A stretch of 25,976 bases of DNA, counting the filler, from Haplodiscus bocki (taxonomy: Eukaryota): the NCBI GenBank assembly GCA_965655095.1. It is 2 parts of 2 records of this genome, joined end to end, with 100 filler letters (N's around TTAATTAATTAA, not from the genome) between each part and the next. Parts side by side here need not be neighbours in the genome. Positions count along the whole stretch, not along the records: positions 1 to 11,595 come from OZ296649.1; 1 more part is not named here. One strand, written 5' to 3'. Under the pieces are notes generated by a model, which had not been told where the DNA came from, did not search any database, and saw nothing but the letters and a program-made list of their open reading frames with translations. Position 1 is the stretch's first letter. Each line of letters opens with the position of its first letter. Positions 2,668 to 2,880 of the stretch are shown here, piece by piece. The position numbers and the translations under genes were made by a program.

Positions 2668-2880
2668 CAATAATATAGTATATTGCGGATAATACCAGTA
2701 GTTCCTCGCTATCGCTTGTCACACTGATATTATCCGACAGTATACCCGCTCGCTCGTCACTTCGTTCCTCACCGGCTTCCTTCCAGTCAGCCTCTCGCTT
2801 ATATTATTGCTCAGCTCTATCGAGCTTCGCCTTCCAGTCAGCCTCTCGCTTATATTATTGTTCGGCTCTCACGAGCCTCA
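2668..2880 (+). repeat. Left terminal inverted repeat with hairpin and two 51-bp tandem units
   Basis: Shares ordered blocks with the reverse complement of 17238-17394: atattgcggata, ctcgct, tatccgaca, ctcaccggct, gcctctcgcttatattattg. Tandem units lie at 2779-2829 and 2830-2880. Confidence 0.88.

Follow-up and report, generated by a model that had tools for sequence, protein, structure and literature searches.

Strand-biased hairpins in a repeated unit at Polinton borders of Haplodiscus bocki: candidate single-stranded DNA signals

In the standing Polinton model, as set out in the accessible part of PMC4196379, a single-stranded racket is formed by the two terminal inverted repeats (TIRs). 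The end motifs (AGT)2 and (AG)3 of vertebrate Mavericks are expected to serve jump-back initiation (accessible part of PMC8097293). The repeated unit described here shares with these elements a short tandem-repeat tip and a length within the reported TIR range of 46–1,447 bp; its (AAT)2 tip differs from the three motifs reported (PMC8097293). Mavericks make up 4.5% of 656 Mb in one invertebrate assembly (accessible part of PMC6451197), a figure used as a benchmark only. A direct demonstration of a single-stranded Polinton intermediate was not found in the literature searched. Self-folding, strand-specific hairpins at Polinton ends are undescribed in the accessible parts of PMC8502044, PMC11296320, PMC6431247 and PMC8097293 (open literature), and the covarying stems reported below are a further difference from the termini described in the accessible parts of PMC8097293 and PMC4196379.

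HINE/Helentron elements carry a short inverted repeat near either end, with a stem-loop on the 5' side and a 4-base microsatellite; the 3' repeat is followed by a palindrome and then by a T run (PMC4067079 and PMC7492417, accessible parts). An inverted repeat pair, stem-loop, microsatellite, palindrome, T run and high abundance are common to the present unit and HINE/DINE-1/HLE2 elements (accessible parts of PMC4067079, PMC7492417 and PMC11417382). The words GCGNAGC and GCGNNAGC form mini-hairpins that are extraordinarily stable as DNA and far less so as RNA, and such mini-hairpins sit at single-strand origins and promoters, namely the phage G4 origin, ssiA and the N4 promoter (accessible part of PMC13037366). 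Exact words of this type are present at the apices of the hairpins studied here, likewise on one strand only; unlike the phage and plasmid examples, they lie in an animal mobile element and are flanked by tandem GA and long stems. AAV and parvovirus terminal hairpins carry a (GCTC)n Rep-binding element. Here, too, a terminal hairpin is followed by a GCTC-like tract, but the tract is degenerate and without a T-shaped palindrome, and the neighbouring gene encodes a protein-primed polymerase. Long terminal palindromes with similar GA-rich loops are presumably also a property of the non-autonomous Crypton repeats Eulor5/6. In contrast to these, a tyrosine recombinase is absent from the window, and hairpins are undescribed in the accessible parts of PMC5753468 and PMC3212892. 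No match to the unit was found in these two sources or in PMC8557442, as far as accessible.

The stretch analysed (the window) comprises 25,976 nucleotides, filler included, of assembly GCA_965655095.1. The linker at 11596–11695 (100 bases) consists of two runs of 44 N flanking a 12-base spacer; it joins two different Polinton pieces and separates the left hairpin from the right one. Shared gene blocks lie on both sides of it, with 69.6% identity between 10038–11322 and 14119–15413 and 70.5% between 8114–9184 and 12156–13230, and the left and right ends align at 70.6% over 160 columns. In view of the linker, the repeated gene block and the end identity, the difference between left and right is most simply one between lineages. 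Judged from these alignments, the two unit copies of the window most likely stem from two different elements about 70% alike. A sequence-only reading had taken them for the non-identical TIRs of one Polinton, a premise that is not supported, on the same grounds. The 6-base flanks of the left and right tips match at 4/6 positions, and the ends are probably from different insertions. A contig of run X2 matches 2560–2668 without differences and then continues with 74 other letters, and the same run has zero cover at 17406–17477. The contig at the left flank and the hole fit two separate insertions; the hole proves nothing and was not counted as evidence. Contigs leaving the left flank at the tip may represent an empty allele, in which case the left insertion is polymorphic.

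Further repeats were noted in the window. Its strongest inverted repeat (11576–11715) is an artefact of the N linker. A stretch of ~460 bases is present twice in the right piece (11696–12153 and 14115–14570, 91%), which may make this piece a pair of copies, tandem or nested. At 9–669, a small repeat has three ~125-bp units in tandem, enclosed by direct copies of 95 bases (85%). Short GC-rich repeats (period 31, 2.7 copies) occupy 21629–21785 and 22371–22547; their cores are palindromic, and among 70-base folds theirs are the most stable in the window. The right flank (17400–25000) has 38–48% GC and a mostly positive GC skew of ~0.1–0.24.

Contigs of four runs (two samples, one study) were mapped onto both ends; run X1 (share 0.06) was excluded. 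At the left tip (2669) similarity stops and unrelated flanks follow in 103–114 contigs per run, and a further 67–76 match one base more (2668). Behind the right tip (17393), unrelated flanks were found in 34–40 contigs per run. The true tips are nine bases outside the end limits of the sequence-only reading, whose hairpin positions were correct. From the tip, the unit runs inward for ~165–190 bases; the long hairpin comes first, then the degenerate GCTC tract, the 20-base block, the small hairpin and finally the T run. The features of the window are as follows.

2669–2677, plus strand: left tip, a trinucleotide twice, (AAT)2; its 9 bases are the inverse of 2800–2808 (contig boundary and sequence)
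2678–2745, minus strand: long hairpin of the left copy, folding better on the G+A-rich strand (folding and pair counts)
2708–2715, minus strand: apex of this hairpin, an exact GCGNNAGC DNA mini-hairpin word (motif from PMC13037366)
2746–2768, plus strand: degenerate (GCTC)n tract, present in 4/4 copies; includes another small GNA hairpin, on the minus strand
2790–2809, plus strand: best-conserved 20-base block, identical in 4/4 copies; contains the inverse copy of the tip (2800–2808)
2810–2831, minus strand: small inner hairpin with tandem GA, 5-bp stem and GNNA loop
2834–2887, plus strand: tandem second copy of inner block and small hairpin, period 51, with the T run at its end
2892–3520, no strand assigned: four ~145-bp repeats, two forward and two inverted (fold-back), separating the tip unit from the first Polinton frame and linked to the unit by contigs
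3681–6772, minus strand: gene for a protein-primed B-family DNA polymerase, disrupted by stops and frameshifts (Pfam PF03175; tblastn of the relative P0001)
8457–9171, minus strand: retroviral-like integrase fragments of the left element (Pfam rve, PF00665, below the curated cut-off)
15920–17222, minus strand: broken copy of a fibre-like gene of 434–444 aa, starting 10 bases inside the right unit
17233–17393, minus strand: right copy of the unit, with its tip at 17393; compared with L007 it is cut within the small inner hairpin
17320–17384, plus strand: long hairpin of the right copy, with the better fold on the G+A-rich strand; apex mini-hairpin at 17349–17356

A comparison of the 20-base block with metagenome contigs gave two more natural copies of the unit, L006 and L007. 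L007 has a complete tip; L006 is without the 5' arm, and its positions 1–3476 are a full-length LINE that starts inside the small hairpin of the unit, so that the inner side of L006 is uninformative for the choice between Polinton and HINE. This LINE has an ORF1 with a cysteine-rich finger, an 850-aa endonuclease/reverse transcriptase frame and a 5-base tandem tail. The (AAT)2 dimer starts the left copy and L007, and the right tip fits it at 5/6 positions; 2.5% of flanking positions begin a 3-mer dimer. The internal inverse copy of the tip comprises 9 bases in the left copy and 10 in L007, and matches at 7/9 in the right copy. At the inner edge of the unit the summed contig depth falls 118- to 589-fold; this depth is inflated by overlapping short contigs, does not equal copy number and therefore cannot separate Polinton tips from HINE elements. 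A scan of viral contigs for the terminal patterns had zero matches, and the patterns were likewise absent from the prokaryote genomes scanned. Other viral matches of these patterns (5 and 9) were without further similarity and were rejected as chance.

The stretch at 3525–17232 is AT-rich (27% GC) and carries the Polinton genes. As at Polinton/Maverick termini, the unit is adjoined by a protein-primed polymerase and an rve integrase, and its copies are in inverted orientation. Relatives of the polymerase form 168 clusters with up to 1,085 aa (median pairwise identity 79% among 120 matches listed). The integrase fragments matched PF00665 with E values of 1.1e-5 and 0.014, both under the curated cut-off; a second integrase copy is found near 12156–13230, and an endonuclease VII/HNH-like frame lies within the same AT-rich stretch. 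The fibre-like gene matched zero Pfam or PHROG families. Its relatives form 745 clusters (median pairwise identity 73% among 120 matches listed) with a conserved gene start, the first six residues being the same in 103/120 of the relatives listed. For the intact relative P0176, a C-terminal carbohydrate-binding-type (MAM/CBM-like) sandwich is predicted with pLDDT ~90 over residues 250–434 and low values before; the predicted structure has a best Foldseek E of 1.4e-7. On this model the sandwich is a candidate receptor-binding domain. Capsid, packaging ATPase and protease were not recognised with Pfam and PHROG among the short broken frames searched, nearly all of them on the minus strand. Frame 7783–8298 had zero Atlas matches at >=0.9, and locus searches with polymerase and fibre queries found no related or full-length locus, so that an intact element with both of its ends was not seen. 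Many minus-strand frames of 3525–17232 start at or overlap TAAAT words (26 in 13.7 kb), which we take to be of the poxvirus late-promoter type. The fold-back repeats at 2892–3520 are perhaps a separate fold-back or satellite family; at 2924–2960, relative depth is several times higher in runs X3–X5 than in X2. The sole Rfam match is a sub-threshold miRNA at 3101–3311, and the hairpins fit no Rfam family. A tRNA is absent, and there is thus no sign of a tRNA-derived SINE.

The hairpins were analysed by folding with shuffled controls. The left hairpin (2678–2746, plus strand) has a fold z of -4.26 (0/200 shuffles as good), and the right stretch (17310–17400) has z of -4.05 on the plus strand (0/200) and -2.14 on the minus strand (7/200). 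Both stretches had originally been chosen by eye; among 2,574 sub-windows of 70 bases, the best one of the right hairpin ranks 15th and the left hairpin is outside the top 25. The hairpin of L007 has a fold z of -1.92, its outer stem being largely unpaired. All strings quoted in the sequence-only reading are at their positions in the window, and the pairings it had proposed (2678–2699 with 2723–2745, and 17320–17335 with 17370–17384) were borne out, as was the common loop word, of which each hairpin holds one and the rest of the window none (two occurrences against 0.01 expected). The unpaired A that it had described as shared is the same one-base bulge in both window copies and is absent from L007. 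A compensatory change had been seen in the second pair, which is indeed T-A on the left and G-C on the right; in contigs the second form reaches 34–42% of depth on one arm. The change rests on three copies, and its sides are unphased because the partner column is too near the contig ends.

That the inner stems differ in sequence and still pair holds in three lineages (left, right and L007). Stem pairs were counted gap-free from the GGAT/ATCC block, since MAFFT misplaces the inner stem of L007; L006 was left out of the count because its 5' arm lies beyond the contig end. Only 1–6 of 12–13 letters per arm are common to these inner stems, yet each forms 9 Watson-Crick and 2 G.T pairs in 12–14 columns. 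With the best register allowed, shuffled arms gave P values of 0.011, 0.001 and 0.0007 for left, right and L007. Columns that changed on both sides and still pair number 6, 8 and 4 in the three pairwise comparisons, a count over three full and related hairpins that is not equivalent to a covariation statistic. All three inner stems retain imperfect pairs. The three full copies have the outer GGAT/ATCC block in common. At one imperfect outer-stem position per window copy, the letter present is rare in the family: ~99% and 75–83% of depth carries a different one.

The fold is strand-specific: loops and wobble pairs are biased to one strand, which is the new point of this analysis. Folding energies of the three hairpins on the G+A-rich versus the other strand are -13.9 versus -12.1, -17.1 versus -10.9 and -10.8 versus -6.9 kcal/mol, and the G+A-rich folding strand is the one that ends 3' at each tip. 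On this strand the three inner stems hold 6 G.T and zero A.C. Single-strand deamination could give such a G.T bias without selection and would still point to single-stranded DNA. Read on the G+A strand, the loop word is GCGNNAGC or GCGNAGC. In the four copies, all 9 exact GCGN(N)AGC words are on the G+A strand and none is on its complement, compared with 8 on both strands together in the remaining 25.6 kb; as the strand is G+A-rich, the per-copy shuffle P for these words is only 0.02–0.08. At both hairpin apices, loop length and middle letters vary among copies and the first G and last A are kept, usually with tandem GA beside the stem. In contigs, the first middle letter of the right apex varies (21–27% and 6–16%), as does the second (91%), with zero variants of its G or A listed at 3%. 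For listed stem variants with a covered partner, pairing is kept in 6/7 on the G+A strand and in 3/7 on the other. With respect to the genes, the folding strand is the sense strand on the left but the antisense strand on the right, a pattern that fits the geometry of the ends rather than a transcript.

The reading that we favour by a little over an even chance is that the units are the conserved termini of a large and diverse Polinton family of at least 745 protein lineages, selected to fold as single-stranded DNA, likely as a replication origin. Both window copies (2/2) are at Polinton-host borders and face outward, and in several contigs the left unit is continuous with its inner neighbouring sequence. 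The right unit ends 10 bases before a conserved gene start, and ~3% of the Polinton stretch is within 15 bases of such a start. Hundreds of lineages, with 745 fibre-like and 168 polymerase clusters, are enough to explain the step in depth at the inner edge. Alternatively, the unit could be a separate, abundant non-autonomous HINE/Helentron (HLE2) rolling-circle element that borders Polinton debris by chance; its folds would then be signals for an HUH transposase, and the single-strand reading would still hold. We regard this as possible but rather unlikely. The published plan is matched by the short inverted repeats near both ends, the 5' stem-loop, the 4-base microsatellite (2746–2768), the palindrome (2810–2831) and the T run, microsatellite and palindrome being present also in L007. 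The 118- to 589-fold fall in depth fits such an element too, as do joints that link two conserved blocks across diverged middles and loose contig ends, which in every run favour T beside the tip. Some contigs continue inward from the unit with as many as 832 letters that do not resemble the window, which points the same way, but Polinton lineages 70% alike should likewise give inner sequence that does not match the window at 80%. Against a HINE stand an inverted repeat of 9–10 bases (7/9 in the right copy), where at least 11 (11–15, or up to 18) are described for these elements, a 5' stem that is not nested in the short repeat, and the lack of a T or TT beside the tip in the flanked natural copies (0/3); repeat length and T flank are defining features of the group. 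C is found beside the tip in 38–42% of tip contigs, versus 18% C in the flanks. The neighbours, moreover, are Polinton sequences, with both window copies facing outward at their borders and one exactly before a gene start, and an autonomous partner was not seen in the window. The sequence-only reading had also likened the GCTC tract to the AAV Rep-binding repeat. The tract, in degenerate form, is present in 4/4 copies, but a Rep-like gene was not seen on the coding strand: the 5 HUH-like words between the tips are all on the non-coding strand, in frames of 13–49 aa, although broken genes could hide one.

If the units are Polinton tips, their pairing might also be a functionless by-product of template switching, in which one arm of a quasi-palindrome is recopied from the other and single-strand deamination accounts for G.T in place of A.C. 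Arm-to-arm copying would be expected to change whole inner stems rather than single pairs, which is how the lineages differ, and of the 7 listed stem variants 4 result in G.T, in 3 cases through a transition. This origin leaves unexplained a fixed loop G and A with varying loop length and middle letters at two separate hairpins, as well as the imperfect pairs persisting in all three inner stems, and we hold it to be improbable. Taken jointly, selected and by-product folds make it quite probable that the units are Polinton tips. Independently of the choice between Polinton tip and HINE, the signal could be read as RNA, or as double-stranded inverted binding sites for a protein (integrase or promoter factor). 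The outer GGAT/ATCC block shared by the three full copies and the position of the right unit just before a gene start are consistent with this. Double-stranded sites, however, would not lead one to expect a strand bias and would not need pairing of diverged inner arms. For RNA, the loops are not GNRA but triloops, or GNNA whose third base is a pyrimidine, versions of the mini-hairpin words are far less stable (accessible part of PMC13037366), the folding strand changes from sense to antisense between the two ends, and there are zero Rfam family matches. This last reading is, in our judgement, highly improbable. Of the earlier suggestion of selection on ssDNA or RNA structure, the single-stranded part agrees with the signs of folding given above; RNA is disfavoured, since the loops are of the DNA mini-hairpin type and not GNRA and the folding strand is sense on the left and antisense on the right. 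The three roles it had proposed (origin, integrase site or packaging signal) were not separated by the present results.

For Polinton termini selected as single-stranded DNA, the following course is proposed. Strand displacement by the polymerase would free one strand, the 3' end of which would fold into a long stem capped by DNA mini-hairpins. The 9-base tail would be left free, or would pair with its internal inverse copy 130 bases further in; predicted tail pairing is 0.56–0.73 in the left copy, 0.28–0.40 in L007 and near zero in the right copy. The fold may then position the polymerase-terminal protein complex for the second strand, and the (AAT)2 tip may serve jump-back initiation, a role already suggested for end motifs of other Mavericks. 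Selection would keep the fold, the loop G and A and two sequence blocks, while stem letters would drift in pairs. A perfect panhandle of identical ends is predicted at -118 kcal/mol, compared with -14 for the self-fold; being far less stable, the self-fold would play a part either at a stage when the second end is still paired or as a competing state. We can also imagine, with little confidence, hairpin-type single-strand origins, at which the freed 3' tail and its internal inverse copy would prime the second strand and an HUH-like helper would bind the GCTC tract. Protein-primed and hairpin-primed copying would then be mixed, and the ends may have come from a rolling-circle element that still spreads the unit alone.

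Were the units HINE-like instead, they would be a more ordinary high-copy repeat, yet one with an unusually clear mini-hairpin grammar. If they are Polinton termini that fold as single-stranded DNA, ends conserved over hundreds of lineages would be the sequence footprint of a single-stranded copying step, and they would provide short natural substrates for in vitro polymerase tests.
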